A stretch of DNA of 64,000 nt from an uncultured Gammaproteobacteria bacterium (GTDB lineage Bacteria; Patescibacteriota; Microgenomatia; Daviesbacterales; UBA10151). The position numbers were made by a program, and so were the translations under genes. The stretch is taken from the NCBI GenBank assembly GCA_964547465.1, contig CAZJNI010000005.1, positions 7,020 through 71,019 on the forward strand, read 5' to 3'. The notes beneath the pieces were generated by a model. The model was not told where the DNA came from and did no database searches. It saw only the letters and a program-made list of their open reading frames with translations. Below, one piece after another: positions 3,026 through 59,918 of the stretch (position 1 is the stretch's first letter; each line of letters opens with the position of its first letter).

Positions 3026-3069
3026 GGAGATGTACACTCAAATACTGAAATATATACAAGATGAAAAAT
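3026..3069. repeat. Right copy of the 44-bp direct repeat. It contains the ATG of the downstream gene.
   Basis: Identical to 2004-2048. Confidence 0.9.
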
Positions 3070-5262
3070 ATTAACTTAAAATATCTGGAATTATTACTTT
3101 TGTTTTTTCTCTTAACCTTGATTTTGGCATTGAAAACTCAAGTCGCTTCCGCCCAAACTCCAACTCCAGTACCTCTGCCTTGTGGTTTTGGGGTAGCCAG
3201 AGCAACTGGATTGGTTACTACACCAAAGTTCCAGTCAGGTAGCAGTAACTTTGGCACCACTGGAGCTTGTATTATTGACCCTAAAACTTCTTTTGCTCCA
3301 TTTAAGATTCCTTCATTTGATGATTTAAAATCACTTTATTATAATCAAAAAAATAGTACTAACGTCACTAAACATGAGTTGAGTGGAAATCCGCCGTACA
3401 GCCAAACCAACATACCTTTCACTGATTCTACAGACTCTCTTTATCTTGTTAACAGTGATCTAACAATCAGCGGCAATAACACTGGTACTCATACCGGTGT
3501 TGTTTTTGTAGAAGGGAACCTGAATATAACTGGAAATTATTGTTACGGAAGCACTTGCCCTGCAGGTTCTGTCAATGGCACAATAGGCACTGTATTTATT
3601 GTTAGTGGGAATGTTAATATTGCCTCAACAGTTACCAGGATTGATGCGGTTTTAATCTCCAGTGGCACAATTTATACTGCCGGAGCAAATTGTAATCCTA
3701 ATTCTGTGACAGGAAGCAGCAAACTAACTATAAACGGTAGCTTAATATCCTTAAAACAGCCTTCAATCACGGATCCAAACGCTTCTTATATCAAATTCTG
3801 TAGATCTCTAACAGATAATAGTCAACCTGCAGAAGTAATTAATCATCAGGTAAAATATTTAGTAATTTTACGGGATCTCATATCTGATACCTGGCAAAAA
3901 TGGTCAGAGATCGATGCCAGCTTACCCCTGCCAACACCTGGCTCTACCCCTGCCCCAACCCCCATTCCCACCCCAACCCCCACACCCACACCAACACCTA
4001 CCTCAACTCCAACACCAACTTCCTGTTCTGTGACCGCAGGGGTTGTAACCTGTAACTATGCTGGTACTCAACAAACATGGGTTGTACCAACTGGTATAAC
4101 TTCTATTAGTGTCGACGCCAAAGGCGCCCAAGGAAGTAATGGTAATCGGGGTGCAACTGGTGGAAAAGGGGCGCGTGTTATAGCAACTATTAGTGTTACT
4201 GCAGGAGAGACTTTGTATATCTATGTAGGCGGACAGTCTCTTGGGAGGTCGGGTGGATATAACGGAGGAGGGACAGGTGGCACAGACCCATCAAGTGATC
4301 TTGCCGGGGGTGGCGGAGGTGCGTCCGACATCCGGAAAGGCGGAACAGCGATTAGTAACCGTGTTGTAATTGCGGGTGGTGGAGGAGGTGGCGGCTCGGA
4401 ATGTTCCGCATGCTTAAATGTAGCAGGATCAGGCGGAGCTGCCGGTGACCCTCTAGGTAAAATTGGGTCTAATGGAACCGGGACTTATAAGGGATTTGGT
4501 GGTGGGGGTGGTACTATGACTGCCGGAGGAAGCGGAGGTGCAAGCGGTGGTGGTGCTTCAACTGCCGGCTCTAGTCCTGTTAGTGCTGGTATTGGTGGGG
4601 CTGGAGGAAATGGCGCTGGTAATGGAGGTGGAGGTGGAGGTGGCGGAGGCGGTTATTATGGTGGAGGCGGTGGAGGTGGTGGTGATAATGCCGGCAGTAA
4701 TGCTGGAGGTGGCGGTGGAGGTGGTGGATCCAGCTATGGTGATACATTTACCAGCGGCTATCAAAGTGGCAACGGTCAAATTATTATCACGTATTCAACT
4801 TCTACTCCCCAACCTGTTGTGACTTACTACCGTGATGCGGATGGTGATACATATGGTAATCCCAGTGTCACAACCACTTCTTCAACAGGTGCACCTGCCG
4901 GTTATGTCTCCAATAATACTGACTGTTATGACTCAAATGCCAATGCCAAACCAGGCCAAACTCTTTACTTTGCTACCCAAAGAGGTGATGGCAGTTTTGA
5001 TTATGATTGTAATGGGACAATAGAAACAGACGGAAAAGCAATCCATCAAGGTACAGGTGGTTATAGTAAAAATATTGTTTCTGGTAACTGTGCCTATGTT
5101 TCTAATGCTAAATACGGTGCTAAACTTACAAGTAGTTCTTGTGGAACTACTGGAACCTATTATGTTTATGAAGATAACAGGGTGTACGATGGCAGTTGTA
5201 CAGGGACTCTTCTTGGGTATCTTCTTCAAGATATAGGTACATACACAATGCAATGCAGATAA
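3061..5262 (+). CDS. Secreted glycine-rich protein (733 aa). It has a signal peptide, a Pro-Thr linker, a long poly-Gly/GGxGG low-complexity region and a C-terminal Cys-containing domain.
   Basis: The N-terminus MKNINLKYLELLLLFFLLTLILALKTQVASA is a signal peptide. The protein contains PTPTPTPTPTPTS and GGGGGGG runs. Confidence 0.6.
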   Translation: MKNINLKYLELLLLFFLLTLILALKTQVASAQTPTPVPLPCGFGVARATGLVTTPKFQSGSSNFGTTGACIIDPKTSFAPFKIPSFDDLKSLYYNQKNSTNVTKHELSGNPPYSQTNIPFTDSTDSLYLVNSDLTISGNNTGTHTGVVFVEGNLNITGNYCYGSTCPAGSVNGTIGTVFIVSGNVNIASTVTRIDAVLISSGTIYTAGANCNPNSVTGSSKLTINGSLISLKQPSITDPNASYIKFCRSLTDNSQPAEVINHQVKYLVILRDLISDTWQKWSEIDASLPLPTPGSTPAPTPIPTPTPTPTPTPTSTPTPTSCSVTAGVVTCNYAGTQQTWVVPTGITSISVDAKGAQGSNGNRGATGGKGARVIATISVTAGETLYIYVGGQSLGRSGGYNGGGTGGTDPSSDLAGGGGGASDIRKGGTAISNRVVIAGGGGGGGSECSACLNVAGSGGAAGDPLGKIGSNGTGTYKGFGGGGGTMTAGGSGGASGGGASTAGSSPVSAGIGGAGGNGAGNGGGGGGGGGGYYGGGGGGGGDNAGSNAGGGGGGGGSSYGDTFTSGYQSGNGQIIITYSTSTPQPVVTYYRDADGDTYGNPSVTTTSSTGAPAGYVSNNTDCYDSNANAKPGQTLYFATQRGDGSFDYDCNGTIETDGKAIHQGTGGYSKNIVSGNCAYVSNAKYGAKLTSSSCGTTGTYYVYEDNRVYDGSCTGTLLGYLLQDIGTYTMQCR

Positions 5263-5319
5263 GCCGGACCTGTTTCCACTTTACCTAAAATATTTACTTC
5301 CCAAAATTTCTTTTCTGGT

Positions 5320-5952
5320 TTAGAAAACTATTTCTGCGTTGGGGAGTAACTTCTTAATATTGTCTTTTTCAGATTGTCCAAGATTGTTGCCGGTTAGTTT
5401 TAAACTGTGGAGCACACTTAAACTGCCTATTTCTTTTGGAAATTGGGTAAGTTTATTACCTGATAAATCAAGAGCTTGCAGGCTTACTAATTGATTAATT
5501 TCTGCCGGGATTTGAGTAATTTGATTATCAGATAAATCAAGACTCATTAAAGTTGTTGCGGCTAAAACCTCTGTTGGGAACTTGGTAAGATTATTCCCTT
5601 TTAAGGAAAGCTCGTTTAGTTTGGTAAGTTTACTTATATCATTGGGGACTGTTTCAAGTTTTTGTTCCGACAGGTTTAAAACACAGGCTATATCAATATT
5701 TTTTAAAGCCTCATCAAGTAAGCTAAACTGTTTGCAAATTACTTTAACAGGCTCATCTGTATTTAAGCTTGAAGAATTTGTGGATGAGTTTTGAACAGGA
5801 ACTGATGAGTTTTTACTGACCTGCTTTAAGTTTTTAAATAAGCCGAATCTTTGCAGGACAAAAAGGATAAAAATTATCACCAAAATCCCAATTACTATAA
5901 AAACAGCTTTTTTTACAAAATTGGTATTCCCTTCTGTTGGTTGCTGATCCAT
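5320..5952 (-). CDS. Leucine-rich-repeat protein with one N-terminal TM helix. The start is probably the internal Met at 5952, because the longer ORF to 6123 would overlap the pilin gene.
   Basis: LRR units are present (LxxLxLxxNxLtxfP, several copies). The TM segment is AVFIVIGILVIIFILFVL. Confidence 0.55.
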   Translation of the reverse strand: MDQQPTEGNTNFVKKAVFIVIGILVIIFILFVLQRFGLFKNLKQVSKNSSVPVQNSSTNSSSLNTDEPVKVICKQFSLLDEALKNIDIACVLNLSEQKLETVPNDISKLTKLNELSLKGNNLTKFPTEVLAATTLMSLDLSDNQITQIPAEINQLVSLQALDLSGNKLTQFPKEIGSLSVLHSLKLTGNNLGQSEKDNIKKLLPNAEIVF

Positions 5953-6043
5953 ATCTAAAGAGTATTTAAAATTGTTCTCTTTGTCAACGAGTACGTACCC
6001 CAAAAATTTCTTTTCTGGTTTTGGTATAGTTAGAATATATTGT

Positions 6044-7072
6044 ATGAAACGTGGCTTTACCTTAATTGAACTACTGGTTGCTGTCTCAATTATTGCTGTT
6101 TTATCTACCGTTGGTTTAACCACTTTCTCAAATGTTCAAAAAAGCGCCAGAGATAGTGTCAGGAAAGGTGATTTAGTAACTCTTGCCACAGCTTTGGAGA
6201 TATATTTCCAAACAAATGGGAAATACCTGGTAAATACTGGCAGCTGCATAGATAATACTGCAGGCTCAAGTCTTTATACTAATGCTGATTATGCAAAATT
6301 AATCAATGGATCATTACCTAAAGATCCCAAAACCGCAGCAAATTATTGCTATGAATCCCCTTCCGGTTTAACCTTTAAACTTTATGCAAAGCTGGAAGAT
6401 AATACAGACTATATCTTGACTTCTGAAGATTATATAGCCCAGGCAACCCCTGCTCCCACATCCACACCAACTCCAACTTCCACACCAACAAGCACTCCAG
6501 CCCCAACTGCAACACCAACTCCTATCCCAACCGCAACCCCCATTCCCACTCCAACCCCCATTCCTGCCAAACGTGTTTTTGTCACCTCAACTACATATAA
6601 TGGAAATTTGGGAGGATTATCCGGAGCAGATATTAAGTGTCAAACCAAGGCTAATGCTGTGCCTTTGGGTGGGACTTGGAAAGCATGGTTAAGTGATAAT
6701 ACAACTAATGCAAAAGACCGTTTATCTCATCACAATGGGCAATATCAACTGACTAACGGGACCAAGATTGCTGACAATTGGGATGATTTAATCAATCTTT
6801 CTGCATCAAATTTCCTTGATAGCCCTATCAGTTTAACGGAATTTGGTTCTTCAATTATCTCTAGTGGTACTACATGGACAGATACTTCACCTACAGGTGA
6901 TATAATAGTGATTTCAGGACAAAATAATAATTGTTACGGATGGACTAGCCCGTATAATGTAGCTTTTGCGCTTGTGGGAGAAATAGGCAGACAGGATGAA
7001 CGCTGGACACAGAGCATTGCTCCCCGCCAATACTGTAATTATTATTACCGTTTATATTGCTTTGAGCAGTAA
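6044..7072 (+). CDS. Type IV pilin-like protein. It combines an N-terminal prepilin methylation motif with a Pro-Thr linker and a C-terminal DUF1554-like Cys-containing domain.
   Basis: MKRGFTLIELLVAVSIIAVLSTVGL is a class III signal and the G|FTLIE cleavage motif. The C-terminal FVTSTTYNGNLGGLSGADIKCQ resembles DUF1554. Confidence 0.75.
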   Translation: MKRGFTLIELLVAVSIIAVLSTVGLTTFSNVQKSARDSVRKGDLVTLATALEIYFQTNGKYLVNTGSCIDNTAGSSLYTNADYAKLINGSLPKDPKTAANYCYESPSGLTFKLYAKLEDNTDYILTSEDYIAQATPAPTSTPTPTSTPTSTPAPTATPTPIPTATPIPTPTPIPAKRVFVTSTTYNGNLGGLSGADIKCQTKANAVPLGGTWKAWLSDNTTNAKDRLSHHNGQYQLTNGTKIADNWDDLINLSASNFLDSPISLTEFGSSIISSGTTWTDTSPTGDIIVISGQNNNCYGWTSPYNVAFALVGEIGRQDERWTQSIAPRQYCNYYYRLYCFEQ

Positions 7073-7141
7073 CTGCTTTCCAAAATTTCTTTTTTGGATT
7101 TGGTTCATATTGTTGTTTGACTGCAAATTATTTTTAATGAT

Positions 7142-7360
7142 ATGATGGTTTTTAGTGAGAAACTATCAGTTGGGCAGCAGAGAACCTTGTCCGAATTCTT
7201 TGGCAATGCAGGCGTTGCTTGGCTTTCAGCAGGCGTAATTGTACCCTTTTTTACCGGGAGAACATTGGCTAATTTTATTACTTCGATAGCATGGGGAACT
7301 TTGTTTGCGATAGGATTTCTTATAATTGCTTTGGTAGTAACGAAAGGAGTTAAATCATGA
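7142..7360 (+). CDS. Small membrane protein (72 aa) with two predicted TM helices.
   Basis: It is hydrophobic. Its stop overlaps the next ATG as ATGA. Confidence 0.45.
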   Translation: MMVFSEKLSVGQQRTLSEFFGNAGVAWLSAGVIVPFFTGRTLANFITSIAWGTLFAIGFLIIALVVTKGVKS

Positions 7361-7455
7361 TTTCTCAAGATTTACTTAATTTCTTTGCCGCTGCTTCTAT
7401 CGCGAGTGCTATTGTTGTAGTGATTATTTATATTCTTTTCCTGAAAGAGAGATGA
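7357..7455 (+). CDS. Micro-ORF of 32 aa forming a single TM helix (MISQDLLNFFAAASIASAIVVVIIYILFLKER).
   Basis: Its ATG overlaps the stop of the preceding ORF. It is hydrophobic. It is absent from the ORF track because it is shorter than 60 aa. Confidence 0.35.
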   Translation: MISQDLLNFFAAASIASAIVVVIIYILFLKER

Positions 7456-7464
7456 GGTGAGATT

Positions 7465-7548
7465 ATGTTAACACCACTGGTGATTGCTGGAATTATTGCC
7501 ACTATTATTGTGGTGTTTATTGCTATCACTCTTTATCGCCGTTAAAAT
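7465..7548 (+). CDS. Micro-ORF of 26 aa forming a single TM helix (MLTPLVIAGIIATIIVVFIAITLYRR).
   Basis: The ATG follows a GAGGTGA ribosome-binding site. It is hydrophobic. Confidence 0.35.
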
Positions 7549-7635
7549 CATGTACAAGGACAATCCACTTTATTGATGCTTTATTTCACTTCCCAAAATT
7601 TCTTTTCTGGATTTGGTATAGTTAGAATATATTGT

Positions 7636-25311: not shown

Positions 25312-27168
25312 TTATTTTTTAAATTGTTGTTGGTACATTTCAATCAGCTCTTTCACTGTTGTTGCATCTTCTGCTTTTTTGTCTGCTTCACGGAATTTAA
25401 CAAGTCTGGGGAATCTTAAAGCATAGCCAGGCTCAGAGCTAGTCTTACCAGCTGTATGAGTTGGGGATCTGGTAATCTCATCTGCCAAAACTTCTATCAC
25501 GATTTTTGGTATTACCCAAACACTGGGCGTGATTAATGATTTCACCCGTGCTGGCTTACTTTGCACTTTGAACTTTTCACTTTTCACTTTTATTTCTCTC
25601 CATTCCTCATCTGTTAAACCGGTGCCGATTTTGGAAACAGTCACGAATTCGTCTTTCGACTCATCGTAAACCCCGACGAGTAGTGCCCCAGCCCCAAAAC
25701 TAGATCTTTTCCCTTTACCAAAAATATAACCCAAAATTACACAATCAATTGTATCGGAAAGCTCACCACTGGAGTGTCGCTTTAGCTTAACCCAGTTAAA
25801 ATTCCTTCCTCCAGCCTCATATTTACTATCAGGCCTTTTAACAATTAATCCCTCCAATCCTTTTGTTAGTGCATCATCAAAAAGTTCCTGTATTCTATCA
25901 GGCGAGTCTGTTATTTCCCCAGGTTGTGGAATCAGCACCTCGTTACCTTTTACCGTCTGCTCTAGATTCTTGATTCTTGACTCTAGCGACTCTTCCATTA
26001 GGGATTTGCCATTTAAATACATAATGTCAAATACAAAAGCTTTCAGCGGAAGTTTTACTGCCATCTCTTCTATTCCATACTTACGGCGCCTTTTGGTAGT
26101 TTCCTGAAATGGCAAAAATTCTTCTGATACAGGATTAAAAGCCAGAGCTTCTGAATCCAGAATTGCAGATTTTGCTTTTACTTGAGACAATACTCCTTTA
26201 ATAATTTCCGGAAACATGGGGGTTGTTTCTTCCAAATTCCGGGAAAATAACCTTACCACAGTCTTGTCATTGCGAGGGTCCGAAGGACCCGTGGCAATCT
26301 TACTGAGATTAGCAGAAGATGAAATCTTATTATTATCTTTAGAAGATTGCTTCGCCACTTTGTGGTCTCGCAATGACGAGCCGGTGCGATCTAAATGAAT
26401 TTGTACCCTGAAGCCATCAAATTTTTGCTGAACATGAGCCGCTCCTCCAAACTTTTCCAAAATAGTTTTGGGATCAGGCAGTCTCTCTGCCAACTGAGAG
26501 CGGATCGGTCTTCCCACGGTTACATCCAGATCCCGAACTCCCCGAATACCCCGAGACCACAAAACCTCTCCAATTAAACCTAGATCGGAAGTTCTATTAT
26601 ATGCTTCTTCAAGCTCTTTTCTTTTTTTTCTATCCCCCAGTTTTGAAGCAGCAAATGCATCTAAAATAGTGGGGTCCCCTATTCCAAGTCTTGACACACC
26701 AAGTGGAATTCTAACCAGATGCTTGGCGCCTATCCCATCCACTTTTTGTAAAAGTCCAACCAAGCTGGATACTTTTTTCTCAACAGTCCCCTCCCCAGTT
26801 GTCTTTGCAATTTCAGTTAATACTTCAAAAACCTCATTCACTCTTAAATCTTTAATCTTAAATCTTAAATCTTTTGCTAGATTCTCCGCTACCAACCCTA
26901 AATCCCCAACTTTTCCATATTCTTTTAGCACTTGCTCACGACTCACCCCATATGCTCGGGCCATACTTTGAGCAATCAACTTCTCACTCATCCCAATCTC
27001 AATAGGTTCATAAAAAGGGGCTACTCTACCCTGAAGTAAATAAACAACTTGGGCTATCTCATCTGATTTAACTTCATTGAAGAGCTTAGACATAATGTCA
27101 ATTAAAGCTAGACGGGAGGAGGTCTCTTCTAATTTTTCAAAATACTGTACAAGGCGCGAAAATAACAT
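25312..27168 (-). CDS. ATP-dependent DNA ligase (archaeal/eukaryotic Lig1-like) carrying a MITE insertion.
   Basis: Adenylation motif KFDGFRVQIH (KxDG) and a conserved C-terminal OB region. Confidence 0.85.
   Translation of the reverse strand: MLFSRLVQYFEKLEETSSRLALIDIMSKLFNEVKSDEIAQVVYLLQGRVAPFYEPIEIGMSEKLIAQSMARAYGVSREQVLKEYGKVGDLGLVAENLAKDLRFKIKDLRVNEVFEVLTEIAKTTGEGTVEKKVSSLVGLLQKVDGIGAKHLVRIPLGVSRLGIGDPTILDAFAASKLGDRKKRKELEEAYNRTSDLGLIGEVLWSRGIRGVRDLDVTVGRPIRSQLAERLPDPKTILEKFGGAAHVQQKFDGFRVQIHLDRTGSSLRDHKVAKQSSKDNNKISSSANLSKIATGPSDPRNDKTVVRLFSRNLEETTPMFPEIIKGVLSQVKAKSAILDSEALAFNPVSEEFLPFQETTKRRRKYGIEEMAVKLPLKAFVFDIMYLNGKSLMEESLESRIKNLEQTVKGNEVLIPQPGEITDSPDRIQELFDDALTKGLEGLIVKRPDSKYEAGGRNFNWVKLKRHSSGELSDTIDCVILGYIFGKGKRSSFGAGALLVGVYDESKDEFVTVSKIGTGLTDEEWREIKVKSEKFKVQSKPARVKSLITPSVWVIPKIVIEVLADEITRSPTHTAGKTSSEPGYALRFPRLVKFREADKKAEDATTVKELIEMYQQQFKK
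26266..26377. mobile_element. Palindromic MITE-like element (~112 bp, long variant) within the ligase gene.
   Basis: gtcattgcgag-ggtccgaaggaccc-gtggcaatc...gattgcttcgccactttgtggtctcgcaatgac. Confidence 0.85.
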
Positions 27169-38641: not shown

Positions 38642-38667
38642 TTTTTCTCCTATTAGTCTTGCATTGG

Positions 38668-38829
38668 AACAAAGGGCGTTAAACGATGAGTGTTTTGGCA
38701 GCAGGGGGAAACGACAACTGAACAATTAGTGAATTGTCGAGGGGGTAAGCCCCCGCTAGACAAAACACGAAGAGTAGCCCGACTTCCCTGCAAGAAACTT
38801 TTGTCACACTTTTGGTTACAAAAGTGTGA
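38668..38829. ncRNA. Structured non-coding element, copy 1, of an unidentified family.
   Basis: ~80% identical to 45658-45820, with compensatory substitutions in three stems. Confidence 0.55.
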
Positions 38830-38843
38830 AGAAAAAATGACAA

Positions 38844-39998
38844 TTACAAAATCTTTCCATCCTCTACTTTTAAAATCCTGCTGGAATCTAAAAATTCCTG
38901 TGGGATGTTTTCTAGCTCTACTGTGGCAATTATGGTTTGTTGTTTAGAAACTATCTCCACCACATGAGCTCTATGATTTGCATCTAATTCTGAAAATACA
39001 TCATCAAGCAGTAAAATTGGCCTTTGATTTAATATTTTGGCCATATATTCCAGCTGGGCCAATTTAAAAGCCAAAGTGGCTGTTCTTTGTTCACCTCTGG
39101 AACCAAAATGTGCCAAATCACGTCCACCCCCACCGTCATTGCGAGGTCCGACATTCTGTCGGACCGTGGCAATCTTTACTGAATCAAGATTCCTACGCTC
39201 GCTTCGCTCGCTCGGAATGACATCTTGATATAGGATGACACGAAAATCATCCCTGTGGGGACCAATTAAAGTTTGGGCAGCAGCCACTTCCCTGCCATTT
39301 GTTTCTTTTAATTTCTCCACTGAAATTGGGCTTTGTTTGTATTCAAACTTAAACTCACCTAAAGGAGTTTCTAAACTATTAATAAAATTAAAAAAATCTT
39401 CACGCTTTACCCTTACCCCTTCACCCTGTTTGACTAATTCATCTGTCCAGTATTCCAGCTCATCCAGCCTTCCATGTCCTTCCCTAATTTTTTTTAACAC
39501 CCTATTTCTGGAAGTTAAAAATGCCTCATATTGAGTCAGAGTTTTTTTATAAACAGAATCAATCTGGGCTAAACCTAAATCCAAATGCCACCTCCTTAAA
39601 GATGGCGGACCTGTCACCATATTTATATCAGATGGATAAAAAATCACAGCCGGTAAATTTCCTATAAAATCAACTACTTTTCTGGAAATACCATTAACCA
39701 AGACTTTCTTTTTAAAATTCACATCTTTATTAGGTCTATTTAGAATTACCAAAAGTTCAGTCTCTCCTCCATCCACAACAAACCCTTCAACTTTGGCAAA
39801 TTCCTTACCTGTCTTTATTAACTCATCCTCCTGTTCTACCCTTTGAGATTTAGAAGTAGACAGTAAATATACTGCCTCTAAAATATTGGATTTACCTGCA
39901 GCATTATTGCCTACAAAAATAGTGGGACGAGCATCAAAAGTGAGTTCTAAATTAGGGTAGTTTCTAAAGTTTGTAAGATTTAGGCTTTTAAGATGCAT
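38844..39998 (-). CDS. recF: DNA replication and repair protein RecF carrying a MITE insertion.
   Basis: Walker A GNNAAGKSNILEA. SMC-like C-terminal signature. Confidence 0.85.
   Translation of the reverse strand: MHLKSLNLTNFRNYPNLELTFDARPTIFVGNNAAGKSNILEAVYLLSTSKSQRVEQEDELIKTGKEFAKVEGFVVDGGETELLVILNRPNKDVNFKKKVLVNGISRKVVDFIGNLPAVIFYPSDINMVTGPPSLRRWHLDLGLAQIDSVYKKTLTQYEAFLTSRNRVLKKIREGHGRLDELEYWTDELVKQGEGVRVKREDFFNFINSLETPLGEFKFEYKQSPISVEKLKETNGREVAAAQTLIGPHRDDFRVILYQDVIPSERSERRNLDSVKIATVRQNVGPRNDGGGGRDLAHFGSRGEQRTATLAFKLAQLEYMAKILNQRPILLLDDVFSELDANHRAHVVEIVSKQQTIIATVELENIPQEFLDSSRILKVEDGKIL
39135..39221. mobile_element. Palindromic MITE-like element of 87 bp, in-frame within recF.
   Basis: gtcattgcgag-gtccgacattctgtcggac-cgtggcaatc...cgctcgcttcgctcgctcggaatgac. 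Confidence 0.85.
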
Positions 39999-43442: not shown

Positions 43443-43454
43443 TCTTTCTCTCTG

Positions 43455-43555
43455 TCATTGCGAGCGAACTTTAGTTCGCGTGGCAATCTAATTCATGAAT
43501 AAGATTGCTTCGTCACTCGAAAGTCGTCTAGACTTTCTCCCTCCTCGCAATGACG
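43455..43555. mobile_element. Intergenic copy of the palindromic MITE-like element (101 bp).
   Basis: gtcattgcgag-cgaactttagttcg-cgtggcaatc...gattgcttcgtcactcgaaagtcgtctagactttctccctcctcgcaatgac. Confidence 0.8.
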
Positions 43556-43556
43556 G

Positions 43557-44549
43557 TTAGTGGTGAACCGTGTTATTTATCTTTACACCAGCAGAGTCAA
43601 CTGTCAAGGTGGTCACCTTACTTTCCCCTTTCCCCTTTCCCCTTTCCCCTTTTAAATCAAACCATTTATTCTCATCCGTAATTGCAGAAATAGACACCAA
43701 ACAATCCGAAAGTTTTCCGGAAACCAGATCATCAACGCTCCATACTTTTTCATATCTTTTAGCTATTTCAGGATCTGGCGTCCAACCCCTTGCTTCAACA
43801 AAAGCTCCCAAAGCTTTTCCTGCAACAGCAGCCATCACCCCTTCCTCAAATCCCCCGGAACCCATAATCAGGTGTAGTCCTTTCTTATGTTTTTTGGGAT
43901 CCAAAAATGCCAGAATTGAAGGCATAAAATCCCCGGCTTTAATTAAAATTAAATTCACCCCGAATTTCTGGCAGGCATTAATATAGTGGGCATTTCTATC
44001 CCGCTCCATTATTACCACATTAATCTCATGAGGTTCTATTTTGAAAGTATCCACTACTTCTGCTAAATTTTCTTCCACACTATTTTCCATAGACAGCTTT
44101 CCCTTAAGTTGGGGCGGGCCGAACAGCTTATCCATATAATCAATGTCGTCAGGTGTTGCCATTAAGCCTTTATGAGTTGATACAGCAATCACAGAAACAG
44201 CTCCTGGGGAATTTAGCTTGGCAGCTTTTGACCCTTCTACCACATCATTAACCATATCCAGTTTAGGTTCTCCGGATCCGAATGTACCCATCAGGGTAGG
44301 CAGCGCTTCTCCATATTGATGAATATGTTTTCTGCCTTCTGATCCGACAATTTCTAAAGTAAACGGGATATCTGTCAATGCCGTTGCCATGGCATCCACT
44401 CCGGCCTGATCTATCAGCTTTTCGCGGGCTTTAGATTCTTCCTCCTCCAATAAATCATTTGGGGTAAACCCTCTTTCTTTAATTAGTTTGGAAACAGAAA
44501 TAGCAGTAAGTTCAGTTGCGCGGGTTATATGTTTCTTAACAGAATCCAT
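43557..44549 (-). CDS. glpX: Fructose-1,6-bisphosphatase class II (GlpX-like) carrying a (GKG)n repeat insertion.
   Basis: DMVNDVVEGSKAAKLNSPGAVSVIAVS...DIDYMDKLFGPP parallels GlpX. Confidence 0.6.
   Translation of the reverse strand: MDSVKKHITRATELTAISVSKLIKERGFTPNDLLEEEESKAREKLIDQAGVDAMATALTDIPFTLEIVGSEGRKHIHQYGEALPTLMGTFGSGEPKLDMVNDVVEGSKAAKLNSPGAVSVIAVSTHKGLMATPDDIDYMDKLFGPPQLKGKLSMENSVEENLAEVVDTFKIEPHEINVVIMERDRNAHYINACQKFGVNLILIKAGDFMPSILAFLDPKKHKKGLHLIMGSGGFEEGVMAAVAGKALGAFVEARGWTPDPEIAKRYEKVWSVDDLVSGKLSDCLVSISAITDENKWFDLKGERGKGKGESKVTTLTVDSAGVKINNTVHH
43621..43652. repeat. Heptamer tandem repeat (CTTTCCC) x4 inside glpX.
   Basis: Perfect period-7 repeat. Confidence 0.9.
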
Positions 44550-44593
44550 GAGGTAGAAGTTACACTATCGTAAGTTTTGTTCTCTGTCAATTA

Positions 44594-45358
44594 CTAAACC
44601 TGTTGTCGCTTTGGCCTGAGTCCTGTATCTTCCAGGATTTTATCTTTCTGGACATAGAAATCAGTCAACGCTTGATAATGTTGCTGCTCCCTACCACATC
44701 CAGCACAACGGAATACAGGTATCTGCTCAAAAGTCATGTGTACTGTTGCATCTTTGCCTCCCCGCATCTGTTCTGTATTATCAAAACGCTGAAATGGAGC
44801 GGAAGATTGACATTCTTCATCTAGACAAGTCACTTGTAAATTTCGATACGCCTCAGCGTTATCAGGAACTAGGGTGTAACTTCGTAAGTTGGGCGACCAA
44901 CCCGGAGGAATTAATACCACGCTCGTAGCTTCTTTATTAAGTAAACCTAAATACTTGGTTCTAGCAGCTTCAGGATACTGACCTACAATTCCATCTAATG
45001 AAGAAGCAGGTACATAATCAAGCTCTACTCCTATACCACCAGGACGCAGATATTGCACAATTTGTCGGTCGAAAAGCTGATTGAACTCTCTTTTTTGTTC
45101 TTCTGTCATATTTTGTCCAACATCATTTTGCCCACCCTGTAAAACATGAAATGATAGATATCGTCCTGGATAATCTCTTCTTGCGCTTGTACTTGTACCG
45201 ACAACACCGATATCAACCGCTCCTAAAATATTATTTACTTTTCTACGATAGAAACCTCTGAATAATGCAACATACATATATGCTCTACTTGGGGTAACTT
45301 GATTGTCGGTAAACCATCCTCTTACCTGTTCCAGTGTATTTGGTACCTGCTCAACCAT
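44594..45358 (-). CDS. Hypothetical protein (254 aa) with C-terminal Cys pairs (CLDEEC...CAGCG). Its GC content is noticeably higher than that of its neighbours.
   Basis: Intact ORF. No recognisable family from sequence alone. Confidence 0.5.
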   Translation of the reverse strand: MVEQVPNTLEQVRGWFTDNQVTPSRAYMYVALFRGFYRRKVNNILGAVDIGVVGTSTSARRDYPGRYLSFHVLQGGQNDVGQNMTEEQKREFNQLFDRQIVQYLRPGGIGVELDYVPASSLDGIVGQYPEAARTKYLGLLNKEATSVVLIPPGWSPNLRSYTLVPDNAEAYRNLQVTCLDEECQSSAPFQRFDNTEQMRGGKDATVHMTFEQIPVFRCAGCGREQQHYQALTDFYVQKDKILEDTGLRPKRQQV

Positions 45359-45475
45359 ACGGAGCGATTATATATCCCTACCTCATTATTTGCAAATTTT
45401 TCTCTATTAGCTCCAAAATCTCTTTTTTAAATCTTTCTTTAGGGTGTAATAATCTTAATATCTCTCATTGGAAAA

Positions 45476-45625
45476 TCAGATTTGTTGTTTTATATTAAGA
45501 ACACGTTCATAAAGAGCCATACGGATATACCCTGATATACTTTCTCCACTAAGCTTGCGATACTTATCAATATCTTTGCGGAGTCTTTTTGACATTAAAA
45601 CCTCAACTCTCTGCATTCTAGCCAT
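45476..45625 (-). CDS. Small ribbon-helix-helix (CopG/Arc-like) protein of 49 aa. It is not in the ORF track.
   Basis: MARMQRVEVLMSKRLRKDIDKYRKLSGESISGYIRMALYERVLNIKQQI has the beta strand plus two helices pattern of RHH antitoxins and regulators. Confidence 0.45.
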   Translation of the reverse strand: MARMQRVEVLMSKRLRKDIDKYRKLSGESISGYIRMALYERVLNIKQQI

Positions 45626-45657
45626 ATATTCTTAAATTATATTTCTTTTTTGCTTAG

Positions 45658-45820
45658 AAACAAAGAGCGTTAAACGAGGAAGATTTTGATATCAGGGGGA
45701 ACCGGAAACTGAACGATTAGTGAATTTCCGAGGGGGTGAACCCCCGATCAGCAAAATCTGACGAGTAGCTCGACTTTCCAGCAAAAAGAGTTTTGTGATA
45801 CTTTTGCGGTCAAAAGTATC
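45658..45820. ncRNA. Structured non-coding element, copy 2.
   Basis: Homologous to 38668-38829. It has no ORF. Confidence 0.55.
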
Positions 45821-45918
45821 AAATAAGAAATAATTAATGAATCCTGAAATAAATTCAGGATGACATTTTAGGAAGATTCTCCTATACTAATTCCAAAATT
45901 TCTTTTTTGAATATTTCT

Positions 45919-46239
45919 TTAAATTTGGGCAGATTTGGGGGAATCTAGCGGAATCACTCTTACTTCAACTCTGGCTTTTAATGCCTTGGCAATTTTTTCC
46001 AGAGTCTGCCGGGTATAACTTGTATAATCTGCAGACTCTAATCTGGCGATATTAGACTGCTTAGTTCCTACAAGATCAGCTAATTGCTTTTGAGTTAACC
46101 CAGCTTTTTTTCTTAAATCATAAACTTGATAAGCAATATCAAATGCCTGTCCAGTTTTTTCCATTTCATCCTTCATTTCAGGATGTCTTTTTAATAATTC
46201 TTCTGTATATCTATCTAAATCATCTTTTCTTCTTCTCAT
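45919..46239 (-). CDS. HTH-XRE antitoxin (HigA-like).
   Basis: Helix-turn-helix LTQKQLADLVGTKQSNIARLE. It overlaps the upstream toxin gene. Confidence 0.7.
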   Translation of the reverse strand: MRRRKDDLDRYTEELLKRHPEMKDEMEKTGQAFDIAYQVYDLRKKAGLTQKQLADLVGTKQSNIARLESADYTSYTRQTLEKIAKALKARVEVRVIPLDSPKSAQI

Positions 46240-46589
46240 GATTCTATCCTCCTTAATTGATTTAATCTCTTTCTTGCTATTTTTAACTCTTTAGTTGGTG
46301 TCTTCTGTTTTTTCTTAATAAAAATGTGCAACAAAATTATTATTTTGCCTTTTTCAAAAGTATACAAAATTCTTAAAATATCTGTACCTGACTTAACTCT
46401 TAACTCCCATAAACCTGGTTCTATATGTTTTGAAAAAGGCTCTTTATGATAAGCTCTGTTTCTTAATCTCTCAATTGCTTCCCTCGCCTGAAATATAAAC
46501 CTAAGATTACTTTTTTCTAATTCCAGTAAAAATTCTTCTATTGGACTCTTATTAGAATTATCTTTATAAAAGTTTACTTCAAATTCCAT
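46236..46589 (-). CDS. HigB/RelE-superfamily toxin (phage Gp49-like, DUF891).
   Basis: Contains WELR....RILYTF...IILLHIFIKKKQKTP. Confidence 0.65.
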   Translation of the reverse strand: MEFEVNFYKDNSNKSPIEEFLLELEKSNLRFIFQAREAIERLRNRAYHKEPFSKHIEPGLWELRVKSGTDILRILYTFEKGKIIILLHIFIKKKQKTPTKELKIARKRLNQLRRIES

Positions 46590-46665
46590 CTTAATTATAT
46601 CAAATTTGATATATAAATCAAGTAGGTAAATTCTCTTTTACCAATTTAAAAATCTTTCTTTTAAA

Positions 46666-47814
46666 TTACAATTTTAACAATGCTTCTGCTGTTAGGGCAT
46701 CTGTAACTAATCTATTAACCAAACCTATATTAATGGCGTGCTGAATCTGGAAAGTTTTATGTAATCCTCCAGCAATGACTAGTCTGGCTGGAATTTTTTG
46801 AAAATTTTCTCTGCGCATACCATTAGCATACTGGTTCAATTCCAAGGCTATCCCTCCTAATCTTTCTGCCATTCCCTTCATAACCGGCTCTAAATTTTCT
46901 GGTGGCCGGATAACAAAAATACTATTAAGCGCTTCCAGCAACGGATAATAATATCCGCCAGATTCCTCATCTTTAATACCGGAAAAATCTTCAACTTCAT
47001 GGGTAAGATCAATTAATAGGCTTCTAACCTCTGGGGAAAATCCCCTTCCGTAAAATCTATCTGTCACCATAAAATGTTTCAAGCGCGGAGAAACATTACC
47101 AAGACCAATCACCGCAATATCAGGTATCTTTGTTTCTGGATAATCGCCTTTTTTCCTCAGAAAAGCTGTTCCGGAATTAAGAACTGGCTGATTCCACTTT
47201 CCATTTTCATCAAATGATATTAAGGAGGACAAGTAATAGGCAGCGCTCATAGCAGATACATCCATTCTTTTCCCATCTGGCAATTCATACCGGTGCACTC
47301 CACCACAAAGTGAAATAATTTGGGCAGATTTGTCCAAAAAAGATAGTTTTTCATAAAACTGGGCAAATTGCCTCATTTCTACCCCTCCACCAACGCCGAT
47401 ATTGTCATCTCTTCGCAGTAGACTACGAAAATCACTAGCCGCCATCCTAGCCAAAAATCCATGCAAATAATAATCCCACTTAAAATCATAATCTTCCTCA
47501 CCAGAAACTTGCACAGGCAATTCCCACACTGTAGCTTGTAGATCTAGTTGAGAAAATTTCGCTGCTAATTGTCTTTCTAGCGTAGGTGAATTTCCAACCT
47601 TAAGATATGTTAAATAATCATCAGGTAGCTCAGCATGTATCATTCCCTGATTTCTGGCCAGATTTAAAAGGGCAAAAAAATTAACCCTGCTGACATTTAA
47701 AGTTTTTGCAACATCATCAGCTTTTCTTCCTTCTATAAAATGTAACCGGGCTGCTTGTGCTGCCTGTTCTAACCTATTAAATTCTTTTGCCAAACGTTCT
47801 CGATCACGACTCAT
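46666..47814 (-). CDS. Putative SorC/DeoR-type sugar-binding transcriptional regulator.
   Basis: N-terminal HTH and a C-terminal NIGVGGG sugar-binding-like region. Confidence 0.4.
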   Translation of the reverse strand: MSRDRERLAKEFNRLEQAAQAARLHFIEGRKADDVAKTLNVSRVNFFALLNLARNQGMIHAELPDDYLTYLKVGNSPTLERQLAAKFSQLDLQATVWELPVQVSGEEDYDFKWDYYLHGFLARMAASDFRSLLRRDDNIGVGGGVEMRQFAQFYEKLSFLDKSAQIISLCGGVHRYELPDGKRMDVSAMSAAYYLSSLISFDENGKWNQPVLNSGTAFLRKKGDYPETKIPDIAVIGLGNVSPRLKHFMVTDRFYGRGFSPEVRSLLIDLTHEVEDFSGIKDEESGGYYYPLLEALNSIFVIRPPENLEPVMKGMAERLGGIALELNQYANGMRRENFQKIPARLVIAGGLHKTFQIQHAINIGLVNRLVTDALTAEALLKL

Positions 47815-47823
47815 AACATGGAA

Positions 47824-48957
47824 TTATACCTTATTTTTACTAATTAATTCCAAAATTTCCTTTTTAAACCTTTCTTTGGAAAATTTTTCAGCCTGTTTGC
47901 GGCAATCTTCCGGATTAAAATCTTTTGGATCAAACTTTTGTAAAGTATCCATCAAAGCATCAACTGTAACTTGTCCTGACCCACCATATAATAGTCCTGT
48001 TGCCTGATCAATCACTGTTTCCAAAAATCCACCAGATGCCGGAGCAATGACCGGAGTCCCTGCAGCCTGGGCCTCAATTGAGGTAATCCCAAAATCCTCA
48101 TCTTCTGAGGCTACAATTAAAGCTTTTGCATTTTGCAGCAGCTTTACCCTTTCTGCATCACTGACCCATCCTAAAAAGTTGGTAGTTGGTAGTTTGTAGT
48201 TAGTAGCAAGCTTCTTTAGATTTTCCAGCTCCGGACCTGTGCCAGCAACCATAAGATTCAAACCCAATTTCCCGCATGCTTCAACTATCACCTCTACCCC
48301 TTTTCCTCTTACTAGTCTGCTTAATACCAAAAAATGATCTTTCTTTCCCTTACTACTTACTACTTTATACCTACTACTAATTTCCACCGGCGGATAAATC
48401 ACCATACTATCCCGTCTGTAAAACTTTTGTATTCTGGCAGCAATATTTTTAGAATTTGCCGCTAAAATATCTGGCCTTTGAGAAGTTTCAAAGTCATAAA
48501 TTCTTAAGATGTGATTTACTAATTCTCCTAAAATATGAGTTATTGGATTCTTTTTATAATTAAAAGAAGTGGTAAACCCGTATAAATATCTTGGTGGAGT
48601 GTGAATGTAGCTTATGTGTAAGCTACCGGGTTTGGTGATAACTGCCTTGGAAAAGTAAATACTACATGAGGAAATTACCAAATCATATTCTGATAAATCA
48701 AAACTCTCAAACATCATCGGAGCAAATAAACGGAAAGGTGATAAAAGTCTTTCTGCAAATGGAAAATGCTGAAACCAGGAAGTCTTAATGTTCCAATCCT
48801 TAAATCTTTTCCCATTCTCACCCATGGAGTCTAAATTTACAAAAGAGGTGTACAAAGGAGCATCTGGAAAAATCTCATGTAAAGCTTCCAAAACTCTCTC
48901 TGCACCACCATACTCCTTCAGATAATCATGCGTCAGAGCTACTTTTAAATTTTTCAT
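47824..48957 (-). CDS. Glycosyltransferase family 4.
   Basis: EDFGITSIEAQAAGTPVIA (GT-B EX7E region). Confidence 0.8.
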   Translation of the reverse strand: MKNLKVALTHDYLKEYGGAERVLEALHEIFPDAPLYTSFVNLDSMGENGKRFKDWNIKTSWFQHFPFAERLLSPFRLFAPMMFESFDLSEYDLVISSCSIYFSKAVITKPGSLHISYIHTPPRYLYGFTTSFNYKKNPITHILGELVNHILRIYDFETSQRPDILAANSKNIAARIQKFYRRDSMVIYPPVEISSRYKVVSSKGKKDHFLVLSRLVRGKGVEVIVEACGKLGLNLMVAGTGPELENLKKLATNYKLPTTNFLGWVSDAERVKLLQNAKALIVASEDEDFGITSIEAQAAGTPVIAPASGGFLETVIDQATGLLYGGSGQVTVDALMDTLQKFDPKDFNPEDCRKQAEKFSKERFKKEILELISKNKV

Positions 48958-48994: not shown

Positions 48995-49807
48995 TTAAAT
49001 TCCTTTCACCATTTCAATCACCTGTTCAAAAGAAAGGCTGGTTTTTTGAGAATCAGGGGAGGAACCAGAACCGCAAATTAAAATATGGTGGGAATGATGC
49101 AGGAACCAGCCTGCTTTTATATCAACCTCTTTTAATTTTTCATACACAGGTTCTAAATCCAAATCATTTCTGGGTGTAAAAAATTGTACATATCCTGTTT
49201 TTGGTCCCATAATTAAAAATAAATCCCCACCCTTTTTTTTACAAAAAGGCCTGTCAACTTTATCTGATAAAACTGCGTAGGATTTACCAAAACTAGTTTC
49301 AAACTCTTCTTTCTTCTGCCAATCCAGCTCTGCCTCCTCATCATCTTTTACAACATTTAAGATCCTATCCAAAATTTCCGCTCCCAGTTCTGTTGATTTA
49401 CCTGAAGTTTTAGCGTCATTATCCTTAAGTCTGATAAATGCCGGAATGTTAAATTGATCAAAATCTTCCTGGGGCAGCCTTCCTGTATCATCCAGCCTGA
49501 CCCATTCAACAATCCTGTTGTATGCTTTTTTTTCAGTCTCATCTTTAGGTGAAAGTGAGGAGGAGATTACATCTTTCCAAACCAAAGATGTTGCACACTC
49601 ATTAATATCACCTTTATGCTCGTCAAACTTGCCCCTACCTACCCCAAAGTAGACTTTATCATCTGAATTCTCTAAACCCTTGTTCCCTTCTTCCGCAGAG
49701 ATAAATTCAAGATGAGCACCCATAAATTCCGGATGGAATTTTTTAAAAAGCCAAATTGCAGCAATATCATCTAAATGCGGGTTAATATGAGTTACTAGTG
49801 TCTTCAT
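48995..49807 (-). CDS. Metal-dependent hydrolase, UPF0160/MYG1-like (tentative).
   Basis: THINPHLDDIAAIWLF and FDEHKGD resemble the MYG1 His/Asp motifs. Confidence 0.35.
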   Translation of the reverse strand: MKTLVTHINPHLDDIAAIWLFKKFHPEFMGAHLEFISAEEGNKGLENSDDKVYFGVGRGKFDEHKGDINECATSLVWKDVISSSLSPKDETEKKAYNRIVEWVRLDDTGRLPQEDFDQFNIPAFIRLKDNDAKTSGKSTELGAEILDRILNVVKDDEEAELDWQKKEEFETSFGKSYAVLSDKVDRPFCKKKGGDLFLIMGPKTGYVQFFTPRNDLDLEPVYEKLKEVDIKAGWFLHHSHHILICGSGSSPDSQKTSLSFEQVIEMVKGI

Positions 49808-59256: not shown

Positions 59257-59661
59257 TCAGCTTTTTTTCTCGCCCACAATTTTTTCAAATTCTTTTGCTA
59301 GCTTTATATCAAAAGTTTTAAATTCTGTCACTCCCGCCATTTTTGAAAATGCAAGATTGTAACAGTCCTCCAAACCTATAACTGATTTTTCATAAAAAGC
59401 AAGACTTTCCTGTAATAGCTGTTTTTCCGGGAATATTATGCTTAAATTAAGTATTTTAGATAGGATTTCTACCAAAAATGATTTATCTTTTTTGTAGAAA
59501 GATTTTAATACAAAGTGTATTTCAAAAAATACCACCGAGGAAGTAATTAATTCAATTTCCCCTTTTGCAGCTCCAAGAAAAAGTTTTTTAGCTTCTAAAT
59601 ATTGAAGTTTATTCTCTCGTAAAATGAATCTTAAAAAATAATTAGTATCAACAAAAATCAT
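59257..59661 (-). CDS. vapC: PIN-domain ribonuclease toxin (VapC).
   Basis: MIFVDTNYFLRF and acidic PIN residues. It overlaps the upstream antitoxin. Confidence 0.75.
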   Translation of the reverse strand: MIFVDTNYFLRFILRENKLQYLEAKKLFLGAAKGEIELITSSVVFFEIHFVLKSFYKKDKSFLVEILSKILNLSIIFPEKQLLQESLAFYEKSVIGLEDCYNLAFSKMAGVTEFKTFDIKLAKEFEKIVGEKKS

Positions 59662-59918
59662 TTGGAGCTATATTTACTTTTATAATATTCATCCCGCGCT
59701 TCATCAATAATTTGATCCAAATTTTTACCTTTCCATTTTTTGGGCATAGGTACAGAACCTGCCAACTCCTCAACTAGCCTTTCTGCTGAAGTAATTTTTA
59801 AGCTACCATTTTCCTCTGATACTATTACCCTCTGGCCTATCTGCAACCTAGCTTTTCTAAAAATTTCAGCCGGGATGGTTAACTGTTTTTTACTGGTAAT
59901 GGTGGCCATTTGATTCAT
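59658..59918 (-). CDS. vapB: AbrB/MazE-type antitoxin (VapB).
   Basis: SpoVT/AbrB-like ITSKKQLTIPAEIFRKARLQIGQRVIV. Confidence 0.7.
   Translation of the reverse strand: MNQMATITSKKQLTIPAEIFRKARLQIGQRVIVSEENGSLKITSAERLVEELAGSVPMPKKWKGKNLDQIIDEARDEYYKSKYSSK

Follow-up and report, generated by a model that had tools for sequence, protein, structure and literature searches.

Integrative elements that insert at the 3' end of a tRNA or protein-coding gene leave direct repeats on their flanks. In att-type hot spots the upstream gene regains its 3' end from the copied target, and toxin-antitoxin (TA) modules and orphan genes are typical cargo; with integron arrays and the pdif modules of Acinetobacter these hot spots have in common the serial accumulation of cargo at one site, bounded by copies of the target. 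Bacteria of the Candidate Phyla Radiation (CPR) have tiny, streamlined genomes and, to our knowledge, little is known of their gene gain and loss. Genomic islands have been documented in Patescibacteria generally, as strain-variable, horizontally exchanged segments of streamlined CPR genomes (PMC12455944). The locus analysed here shares these traits. It occupies positions 44594-47814 of a 64,000-nucleotide (nt) stretch of a Daviesbacterales contig (CAZJNI010000005.1, positions 7,020 to 71,019), which is called the window below and whose own numbering is used throughout, and it lies between a gene for a GT4 glycosyltransferase (GT) and glpX. We privilege, with a probability of about 0.7, the reading that this segment of a Candidatus Daviesbacteria genome (CPR/Microgenomates) is an array of four cassettes, specific to the strain and each transcribed on its own, that lies in a recombination hot spot where GT meets the glpX-fba operon. 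The array differs from att-type hot spots, integron arrays and pdif modules in showing no integrase, relaxase or transposase nearby, in carrying cassettes of one or two genes with their own promoters, and in a repeated unit that consists of 40-75 nt of coding and promoter sequence, not of attC or dif. It differs from the Patescibacteria islands in being an islet of only 3.2 kb, devoid of a compositional signal and visible only by synteny and target duplications. Literature searches found neither the hot spot nor the structured RNA that it contains described.

The islet is defined by comparison with related loci. A scan of metagenomes for GlpX yielded 58 such loci (59-85% identity), onto which the proteins of the window were mapped by tblastn; the gap statistics cover the 35 Candidatus Daviesbacteria loci that hold both GT and glpX. 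The usual gene order is DHH-like gene, GT, glpX, fba, fpg. The gap between GT and glpX measures 3-99 nt in 16 of the 35 loci, 157-348 nt in five and 549-1271 nt in 14. In the 16 loci where GT abuts glpX the junction holds a single intact unit, and their glpX is 66-85% identical to that of the window. At 3274 nt the gap of the window is the longest among the loci compared, with an insert of about 3.2 kb (44594-47814). Flanks are thus conserved around a site that is empty in 16/35 loci. Filled gaps hold the TA pair HigBA in seven loci (L012, L020, L028, L031, L032, L034 and L061) and a small gene for a ribbon-helix-helix (RHH)-like protein in 4/35 (L023/24, L034 and L061), the remaining ones being occupied by mutually unrelated orphan open reading frames (ORFs) of 77-357 amino acids (aa). 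HigBA is an exact promoter-to-stop insert at the junction in at least eight Daviesbacteria-like loci, the previous seven and L071. Searches by tblastn gave no relative of the 254-aa protein of the islet in the 35 loci and no homologue of its SorC-like regulator in the whole set of 58. Since the gap is long and SorC is absent from the site in relatives, the accessory region is 44594-47814, SorC included. An earlier reading of the window from its letters and ORF list, made without database searches (the sequence-only reading), had proposed a small accessory island at 44594-46589; the island is real, as seen by synteny and flanking duplications, and its boundaries were drawn too narrowly. That reading had named a comparison of gene neighbourhoods across metagenomes as a check, and it is this comparison that displays the insertion site in the 35 related loci.

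Serial recombination at a single site is pointed to by a degenerate unit copy, 40-75 nt long, that stands before each of the four cassettes: the SorC-like regulator, HigBA, a structured RNA followed by the RHH-like gene, and the 254-aa orphan. Coordinates of these and of all other features are collected in Table 1. The unit corresponds to the last ~50 nt of GT, coding for ...KERFKKEILEL..., and at empty sites it continues into the glpX promoter. Unit A' is collinear with the junction between the GT end and the HigB promoter in L012. The arrangement of unit B, a copy placed after HigA, is found also in L012 and L034. The counterpart of unit C, promoter included, is the GT-glpX junction of the empty sites L016 and L033, with which it is collinear, and unit D is the same promoter as at empty sites, for example that of L016. 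Pairwise identity among units A, A', B and C is 80-87%; compared with GT ends or additional copies of L012, L034, L071 and L016, units of the window reach 74-91%. A 29-nt core of the unit occurs three times in the window versus an expectation of zero (none in 100 shuffles). The stop codons of the cassettes end 0-5 nt ahead of the AAAGAAAG start of the next unit. Among relatives, HigBA of L012 lies between two 50-nt units, and a unit follows HigA in L034 and the RHH gene in L071. The copy of a dispersed motif that the sequence-only reading saw between the RHH and 254-aa genes is present, at 45412-45440. The motif was also considered as a protein-level repeat (KKEILE) and this was rejected: the copy at 9807 is in another frame and the three copies of the islet are duplicates of the GT 3' end. 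In L071 (~2430-2545) glpX is deleted save for its last ~20 codons, which are fused directly to a copy of the GT-end unit, so that the unit also serves as a deletion end point.

Table 1. Features of the islet, its flanks and repeated elements (positions of the window unless a related locus is named).
Feature	Position	Strand	Remarks
DHH-like gene	48995..49807	minus	first in transcription order
GT4 glycosyltransferase (GT)	47824..48957	minus	3' end conserved in GT orthologues of related loci
Unit A, true GT 3' end, AAAGAAAGGTTTAAAAAGGAAATTTTGG...	47828..47877	minus	overlaps the SorC-like -10 box (TATAAT)
Cassette 1, SorC/CggR-like sugar-binding transcription regulator, 382 aa	46666..47814	minus	Pfam PF04198
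Unit A', degenerate GT-3'-end copy that lacks ~11 internal nt	46625..46662	minus	81-87% identical to the other units
HigBA promoter TTGATT-16-TATAAT with TG	46594..46621	minus	promoter scan
Cassette 2, toxin HigB (Gp49/RelE superfamily), 117 aa	46236..46589	minus	PF05973
Cassette 2, antitoxin HigA (XRE helix-turn-helix), 106 aa	45919..46239	minus	PF01381
Unit B, copy of the GT 3' end	45871..45920	minus	begins right at the HigA stop codon
Hairpin ATCCTGAA-TTTAT-TTCAGGAT and T-rich tail	45841..45861	minus	read from sequence
Cassette 3a, RNA copy 2	45636..45825 (core ~45655-45818)	minus	covariance model R1, 194.8 bits
Cassette 3b, 49-aa small protein, probably ribbon-helix-helix	45476..45625	minus	weak profile matches
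9-codon ORF MRDIKIITP	45439..45468	minus	just after the RHH gene, +1 frame here
Unit C, copies of the GT 3' end and of the glpX promoter	45367..45440	minus	TTGCAA-17-TATAAT at 45395..45367
Cassette 4, 254-aa near-orphan protein	44594..45358	minus	two domains
Unit D, resident glpX promoter TTGACA-17-TAGTGT	44550..44590	minus	directly after the 254-aa stop codon
glpX	43557..44549	minus	Pfam GlpX E 1.1e-42; ATG at 44549
Class I fba, then fpg	downstream of glpX	minus	housekeeping neighbours
RNA copy 1	38645-38833	minus	78% identical to copy 2
RNA copies in relatives	L004-L010; L027 3544-3732; L036 16408-16601		nine copies
14-mer AAAAGAAATTTTGG	5301, 6001, 7080, 7593, 9807, 45413, 45893, 47850	minus	all copies on this strand
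~57-nt repeat	15407-15463, 39165-39221, ~26266-26283, ~43454-43471		probably also inside fpg (~42.2 kb)

Cassettes would enter the junction, or get reshuffled there, through recombination inside the GT-3'-end unit. This could proceed by Campbell-type single crossovers of unit-bearing circles or, after DNA uptake, by unequal crossing-over between genomes with different cargo. Each insertion would duplicate the unit and give the newcomer a promoter, and most cassette genes would be transcribed as leaderless mRNAs. Because the unit is a gene 3' end plus a promoter, copied with every insertion, a new gene would get its promoter and the site would be ready again; we therefore put forward, as a tentative idea with the odds against it, that the GT-glpX junction is a self-propagating cassette-capture site needing no dedicated recombinase, at which the RNA copy is mobile too. 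The RNA would be mobile since it lies here outside its conserved syntenic loci. Several observations weigh against the array of captured cassettes. Most cassette boundaries of L034 carry no unit copy, so that the rule of one unit per cassette is not universal, and units C and D are alike in little except promoter architecture. Regular expressions turned up neither a recombinase nor an integrase motif across the 64 kb of the window (in ORFs of at least 80 aa for tyrosine recombinases), so that the recombination mechanism is a putative one. The related loci are metagenome contigs without known phylogenetic order, among which gains and losses are not formally separable.

A unit at all four cassette boundaries is also what a dedicated site-specific system, integron-like or Xer/dif-module-like, would produce if the imperfect dyad of the unit, (T/C)(T/C)AAAA-AAGAAA-TTTTGG, were its recombination site. 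The 14-mer AAAAGAAATTTTGG (at most one mismatch) occurs eight times in the window against 0.42 expected, always in one absolute orientation, and its copies at 5301-9807 have 6-bp inverted arms with a 6-nt spacer, the geometry of a tyrosine-recombinase core site. We find such a system unlikely nevertheless. In the copies of the islet the arms are degenerate, reading TTAAAA or TCAAAA instead of CCAAAA; the GT copy is coding and conserved as FKKEILE; and the similarity between units spans 40-50 nt, more typical of homologous exchange. Integron cassettes are promoterless with attC hairpins, whereas those described here have their own promoters with -10 boxes, their boundaries are copies of the GT 3' end, and no tyrosine-recombinase motif, such as an IntI integrase would have, is detected in any ORF of the window of at least 80 aa (regular expressions). 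Homologous or unequal recombination may suffice without a dedicated system. The five copies of the 14-mer at 5.3-9.8 kb form a dyad CCAAAA-N6-TTTTGG and lie close to pilin-like paralogues; the three GT-end units have the core in common with them, yet the two groups may be unrelated. A quite different account holds that the region is ancestral and vertically inherited, the short junctions of relatives being deletions. Deletions do happen at the locus, as in L071 where glpX is nearly lost beside a unit, and HigBA is common to several relatives, but mutually unrelated cargo stands at the same point in different genomes, only the window has SorC and the 254-aa gene (35 loci compared), unit duplications flank the inserts, and in sixteen loci GT abuts glpX with a single intact unit. 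Inheritance without insertion is thus very improbable and we retain the array of captured cassettes.

All genes between 41.5 and 49.8 kb are on the minus strand (ORF list) and follow each other, in transcription order, as DHH-like, GT, SorC-like, HigB, HigA, a 293-nt spacer, 49-aa ORF, 254-aa ORF, glpX, fba and fpg. The cassettes are predicted to be separate transcription units: SorC, HigB, RHH, the 254-aa gene and glpX each have their own -10-like box. A consensus promoter scan, made independently, retrieved TTGATT-16-TATAAT ahead of HigB and TTGCAA-17-TATAAT ahead of the 254-aa gene. In the SorC-like gene the ATG follows the -10 box by 8 nt, and in the RHH gene the box, TATAAT, stands 10 nt ahead of the ATG. 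The promoter of the 254-aa gene ends 8 nt before the ATG, so that its mRNA is probably leaderless; unit C would thus drive this gene. Across the window, the start codon has a -10-like box 10-18 nt ahead of it in 27 of 58 genes, and a Shine-Dalgarno-like motif is found in only 10 of the 58, mainly internal operon genes such as HigA. Frequent -10 boxes near starts and few Shine-Dalgarno motifs suggest that leaderless mRNAs are widespread in this CPR genome.

The islet has no base composition of its own. The GC content of the 254-aa gene, described as visibly higher than that of its surroundings in the sequence-only reading, is 0.412, about one standard deviation above the mean of 62 long ORFs of the window (0.377, standard deviation 0.035), and matches its housekeeping neighbours glpX, fba and fpg (0.411-0.419). 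Its GC content at third codon positions (GC3) is below average, at 0.275. The whole insert has a GC content of 0.363 between flanks of 0.381 and 0.373, and HigB, at 0.274, is its sole compositional outlier. The difference falls within normal gene-to-gene variance, which the sequence-only reading had itself named as grounds for giving up its GC argument. A GC shift as a sign of transfer is therefore rejected, the islet being compositionally distinct neither by GC nor by GC3. Of the proposed horizontally acquired module in a TA context, the variable accessory DNA and HigBA stand and the compositional support falls. Without a GC signal, islets of this kind are probably missed by composition-based island predictors.

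Cassette 1 codes for a protein whose match to the PF04198 Sugar-bind profile reaches 48 bits for a cutoff of 27 (E 1.2e-12), the best stretch covering only residues 325-381. In cassette 2 the Gp49/HigB plus XRE/HigA pair had been recognised in the sequence-only reading at the same positions, and both proteins score above Pfam thresholds: HigB reaches 82.9 bits with PF05973 (cutoff 23.9, E 1.7e-23, profile positions 1-89 of 90) and HigA 43.9 bits with PF01381 (cutoff 23, E 2.5e-11). As in other HigBA systems the toxin gene comes first, overlaps the antitoxin gene by 4 nt (HigB stop and HigA start, 46236-46239) and is preceded by a promoter with a palindrome. HigA has the ribosome-binding site AAGGAGG. 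The palindrome, perfect over 18 nt (46596-46613, 18/18 match to its own inverse), occupies the space that separates the two promoter hexamers (-35 and -10) and, as a candidate operator, fits autoregulation by HigA. The HigB promoter sequence is conserved before HigB in L012, L020, L028, L031, L032 and L061. A hairpin with a T-rich tail downstream of HigA is the probable terminator of the HigBA transcript; it failed a simple scan requiring at least three GC pairs. By its sequence the pair is a canonical, ordinary type II TA system that most likely acts as an ordinary addiction or stress module. What sets it apart from other HigBA systems is its recurrence as a precise insert at the GT-glpX junction; otherwise we saw nothing unusual in it.

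The 49-aa ORF of cassette 3b was correctly placed upstream of the 254-aa gene by the sequence-only reading; its RHH label is weaker. The protein matches DUF6290 at 17 bits for a cutoff of 27 (E 0.007), and further matches to RHH families are also below threshold (HicB-like, 0.035; RelB_antitoxin in one relative, 0.028). AlphaFold2 (AF2) models the monomer as two helices with a predicted local distance difference test score (pLDDT) of 70; the N-terminal strand of RHH proteins forms only in the dimer. These sub-threshold profile hits and the sequence pattern indicate that the protein is probably a ribbon-helix-helix protein. Its family counts 14 members, 48-100% identical, found only in Daviesbacteria-like contigs. 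The gene occurs in the contexts GT-HigB-HigA-RHH (L061, L071), HigB-HigA-RHH-fpg (L072), fpg-RHH-MFS (L073), GT-RHH (L023/24) and 238aa-RHH-178aa (L034). It often starts 10-12 nt past HigA, so that it may belong to the HigBA module as a third wheel, and elsewhere it is solitary; in the window, unit B, the hairpin and the structured RNA lie between HigA and RHH. No conserved adjacent toxin accompanies RHH, whose neighbours vary across seven loci and which keeps downstream only a 9-codon tail. This short ORF is present in seven loci (among them L023, L061, L071, L072 and L073) with a conserved peptide, M[RK][DN][IV]K[IV]I[TS]P, variation being mostly in third positions. Two relatives, of 60 and 63 aa, carry it as an in-frame extension of RHH; elsewhere it has an ATG of its own and lies in the +1 frame. 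The in-frame fusions argue for a variant of the C-terminal tail, and the ORF as the stump of a toxin gene was rejected. We privilege the view that RHH is a putative independent small DNA-binding protein, often travelling just behind HigA.

The 254-aa protein of cassette 4 has an N-terminal α/β domain of ~145 aa, known from only two proteins, and a C-terminal domain (residues ~150-250) with a predicted four-Cys zinc ribbon and a helix. A word-indexed search of 5.8 billion clusters returned only the protein itself. HMMER against 1.84 billion representatives gave a single homologue over the full length (P0002; 242 aa, 33% identical, E 4.5e-24) and about six stand-alone C-domain proteins of 113-136 aa that match residues 150-250 (E 2.5e-11 to 5.6e-4); a profile search added only two more relatives. 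Invariant in all six aligned relatives are W154, C178, C183, C218 and C221; a PPGWSxN motif is conserved too. The two invariant Cys pairs, C178-x4-C183 and C218-x2-C221, make up the predicted ribbon and could bind zinc. The sequence-only reading had noted CxxC-like pairs in a zinc-ribbon protein of no recognisable family, and both traits hold: the four Cys are invariant in six sequences and no match exists in Pfam, NCBIfam, PADLOC or PHROGs, PADLOC covering defence families. The Foldseek search that it had recommended agrees, since the AF2 model (pLDDT ~90 for the C-domain, 50-70 for the N-domain) gave nothing significant, with best E values of 0.2 in the PDB and 0.02 in BFVD. Profile searches detected no helix-turn-helix (HTH) domain. 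A nucleotidyltransferase fold for the N-domain is at most a tentative lead: the Foldseek matches to AadA, HI0073 and pol-beta are of low probability, and reading the two N-domain sequences shows the G[ST] motif without a conserved DxD behind it. The relatives that consist of the C-domain alone are encoded in non-CPR contexts, by solitary genes with housekeeping or redox genes around them. P0002 starts 1 nt after a tRNA-like 3' end (L003, positions 1-60), with no RHH gene; by our reading the preceding sequence is the 3' portion of a gene resembling that of tRNA-Arg(TCT), with T-arm GGTTCGAATCC and acceptor, which the contig end cuts and ARAGORN does not call. The 3' end of a tRNA gene is a classic integration site and a typical place for mobile cargo. 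The 254-aa protein is, on this comparative evidence, a real, conserved and extremely rare protein with a predicted zinc-ribbon module.

Two functional proposals tie the protein to TA systems. Its Cys-pair spacing and the helix that follows recall the N-domain of MqsA, which led to the possibility that it is an MqsA/YgiT-like antitoxin or a fused toxin-antitoxin in which the C-terminal ribbon neutralises the N-domain or a partner in trans. The MqsA/YgiT finger (TIGR03831; 3ga8) likewise has two Cys pairs ~30-35 residues apart in a small β structure followed by a helix. Recurrent weak Foldseek matches are to the MqsA N-domain (3ga8 and 3hi2, probability 0.6, TM-score 0.49 relative to the target) and to a phage YgiT-family protein (probability 0.80), and two of six relatives hit NCBIfam YgiT_finger below cutoff (E 0.003 and 0.14). 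All of these matches are sub-significant, however (E 0.1-0.5), and the protein of the window itself matches neither TIGR03831 nor TIGR03830. It differs further in the Cx4C spacing of its first pair, in the PPGWSxN motif before the ribbon, in its fusion to an N-domain known from two proteins and in the lack of HTH. There is no MqsR-like or other toxin-like neighbour here or beside the relatives, and the C-domain homologues are solitary, without toxin partner. This assignment is improbable. Even less credible, to the point that we give it hardly any weight, is the proposal of the sequence-only reading that the RHH protein, as antitoxin or regulator, and the 254-aa zinc-ribbon effector form an undescribed addiction or defence module of two genes. 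These are neighbours on the same strand in a TA-rich setting and RHH is weakly similar to antitoxin-type families (the DUF6290, HicB-like and RelB matches given above), but unit C, a duplicated GT end and promoter, parts them and gives the 254-aa gene its own promoter. No homologue of the 254-aa protein lies near RHH in any of the seven contexts examined (L023/24, L034, L061, L071, L072, L073), P0002 is preceded by the tRNA-like end and not by RHH, and PADLOC has no match. An antitoxin or defence role for the protein is unsupported. Our best guess, a tentative one, is a zinc-dependent protein- or nucleic-acid-binding adaptor that is not a toxin partner of RHH.

The structured RNA of cassette 3a belongs to a family of ~165-190 nt whose members known to date all come from Candidatus Daviesbacteria (core pattern and metagenome loci); it is this core pattern that identifies the lineage of the window. 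The sequence-only reading had discerned in the island the second copy of a structured element, and it is indeed there, at 45636-45825. The RNA folds into a 5' hairpin of 9-11 bp followed by an irregular rod of ~125-145 nt, of which the apical 55 nt are nearly invariant (GGGGGCUCACCCCCUCGGAAAUUCACUAAUCGUUCAGUUUCCGGUUCCCCCUG). The two copies of the window alone display 13 compensatory pairs, and RNAalifold on 11 copies yields 41 pairs, 18 of them with compensatory double changes. Paired cells amount to 98.2% versus 85.7% in shuffles (none of 500 reaches the observed value) and 40-50% with partners slid. The folding z-score of copy 2 is -6.2 on the minus strand and -3.6 on the other, which together with invariant G-U pairs assigns the RNA to the minus strand. 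At least two positions are conserved, one after recF and one after a small membrane-protein gene (the latter in three other loci), next to scattered copies. The RNA of L036 is syntenic with copy 1 of the window (MFS-recF-RNA) and has its apical loop replaced by a UUCG-capped extension. One paralogue appears to have landed in the hot spot.

Rfam 15 has no match to this RNA at gathering thresholds and, with E values up to 10 for both copies, no overlapping match above 17 bits and none near a gathering score. The RNA as a 5' leader or riboswitch of RHH was rejected: nine of the ten other copies have unrelated neighbours, in either orientation, the tenth being that of L036, and none lies upstream of any other RHH gene. 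It was also rejected as a small ORF (GGSPPRKFTNRS...), as the frame is not kept across copies and 18 pairs are compensatory, and as phage-borne, with no match in viral contigs. Covariation and the differing neighbours and orientations lead to an independent small-RNA family that is not part of a TA system. It resembles 6S RNA in its length of ~190 nt, its long irregular hairpin with a large internal loop, its orientation independent of neighbours and the presence of at least two paralogues per genome at conserved syntenic positions. The 6S RNA conserves shape, not sequence, whereas the apical 55 nt of this family are near-invariant in sequence; an extra conserved 5' hairpin and the absence of any Rfam 6S match even at E 10 separate the two further, so that membership is not supported. 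To assign it a 6S-like or protein-binding role would be guesswork.

Elsewhere in the window, a GC-rich dispersed repeat of ~57 nt (...GCTTCGCTCGCTCGGAATGAC) has four matches versus 0.04 expected. Copies lie between genes and also within ORFs, where a mevalonate-kinase-like gene and recF read them in frame and gain peptide segments like ...RRGNL..KIAS...ARND.... A second probable TA pair at 59257-59918 (minus strand) consists of an 86-aa AbrB/SpoVT-like ORF followed by a 134-aa PIN-like ORF (MIFVDTNYF...), as judged by eye. Type IV pilin-like paralogues (GFTLIELLVAVSIIAVL) lie at 5972-7072 and 7573-9678 (plus strand) and also at 3061-5262; their 5' regions are 92% identical over 300 nt and their Pro/Thr-rich repeat linkers are the GC-rich blocks of the window.

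About 35 related genomes that share one junction and differ in its cargo provide a clean natural example of how CPR bacteria may gain and lose genes, in which target duplications record the order of events. Two leads come from the islet as well: zinc-ribbon proteins that form a near-orphan family, and an RNA family supported by covariation, confined to Daviesbacteria and without Rfam counterpart.

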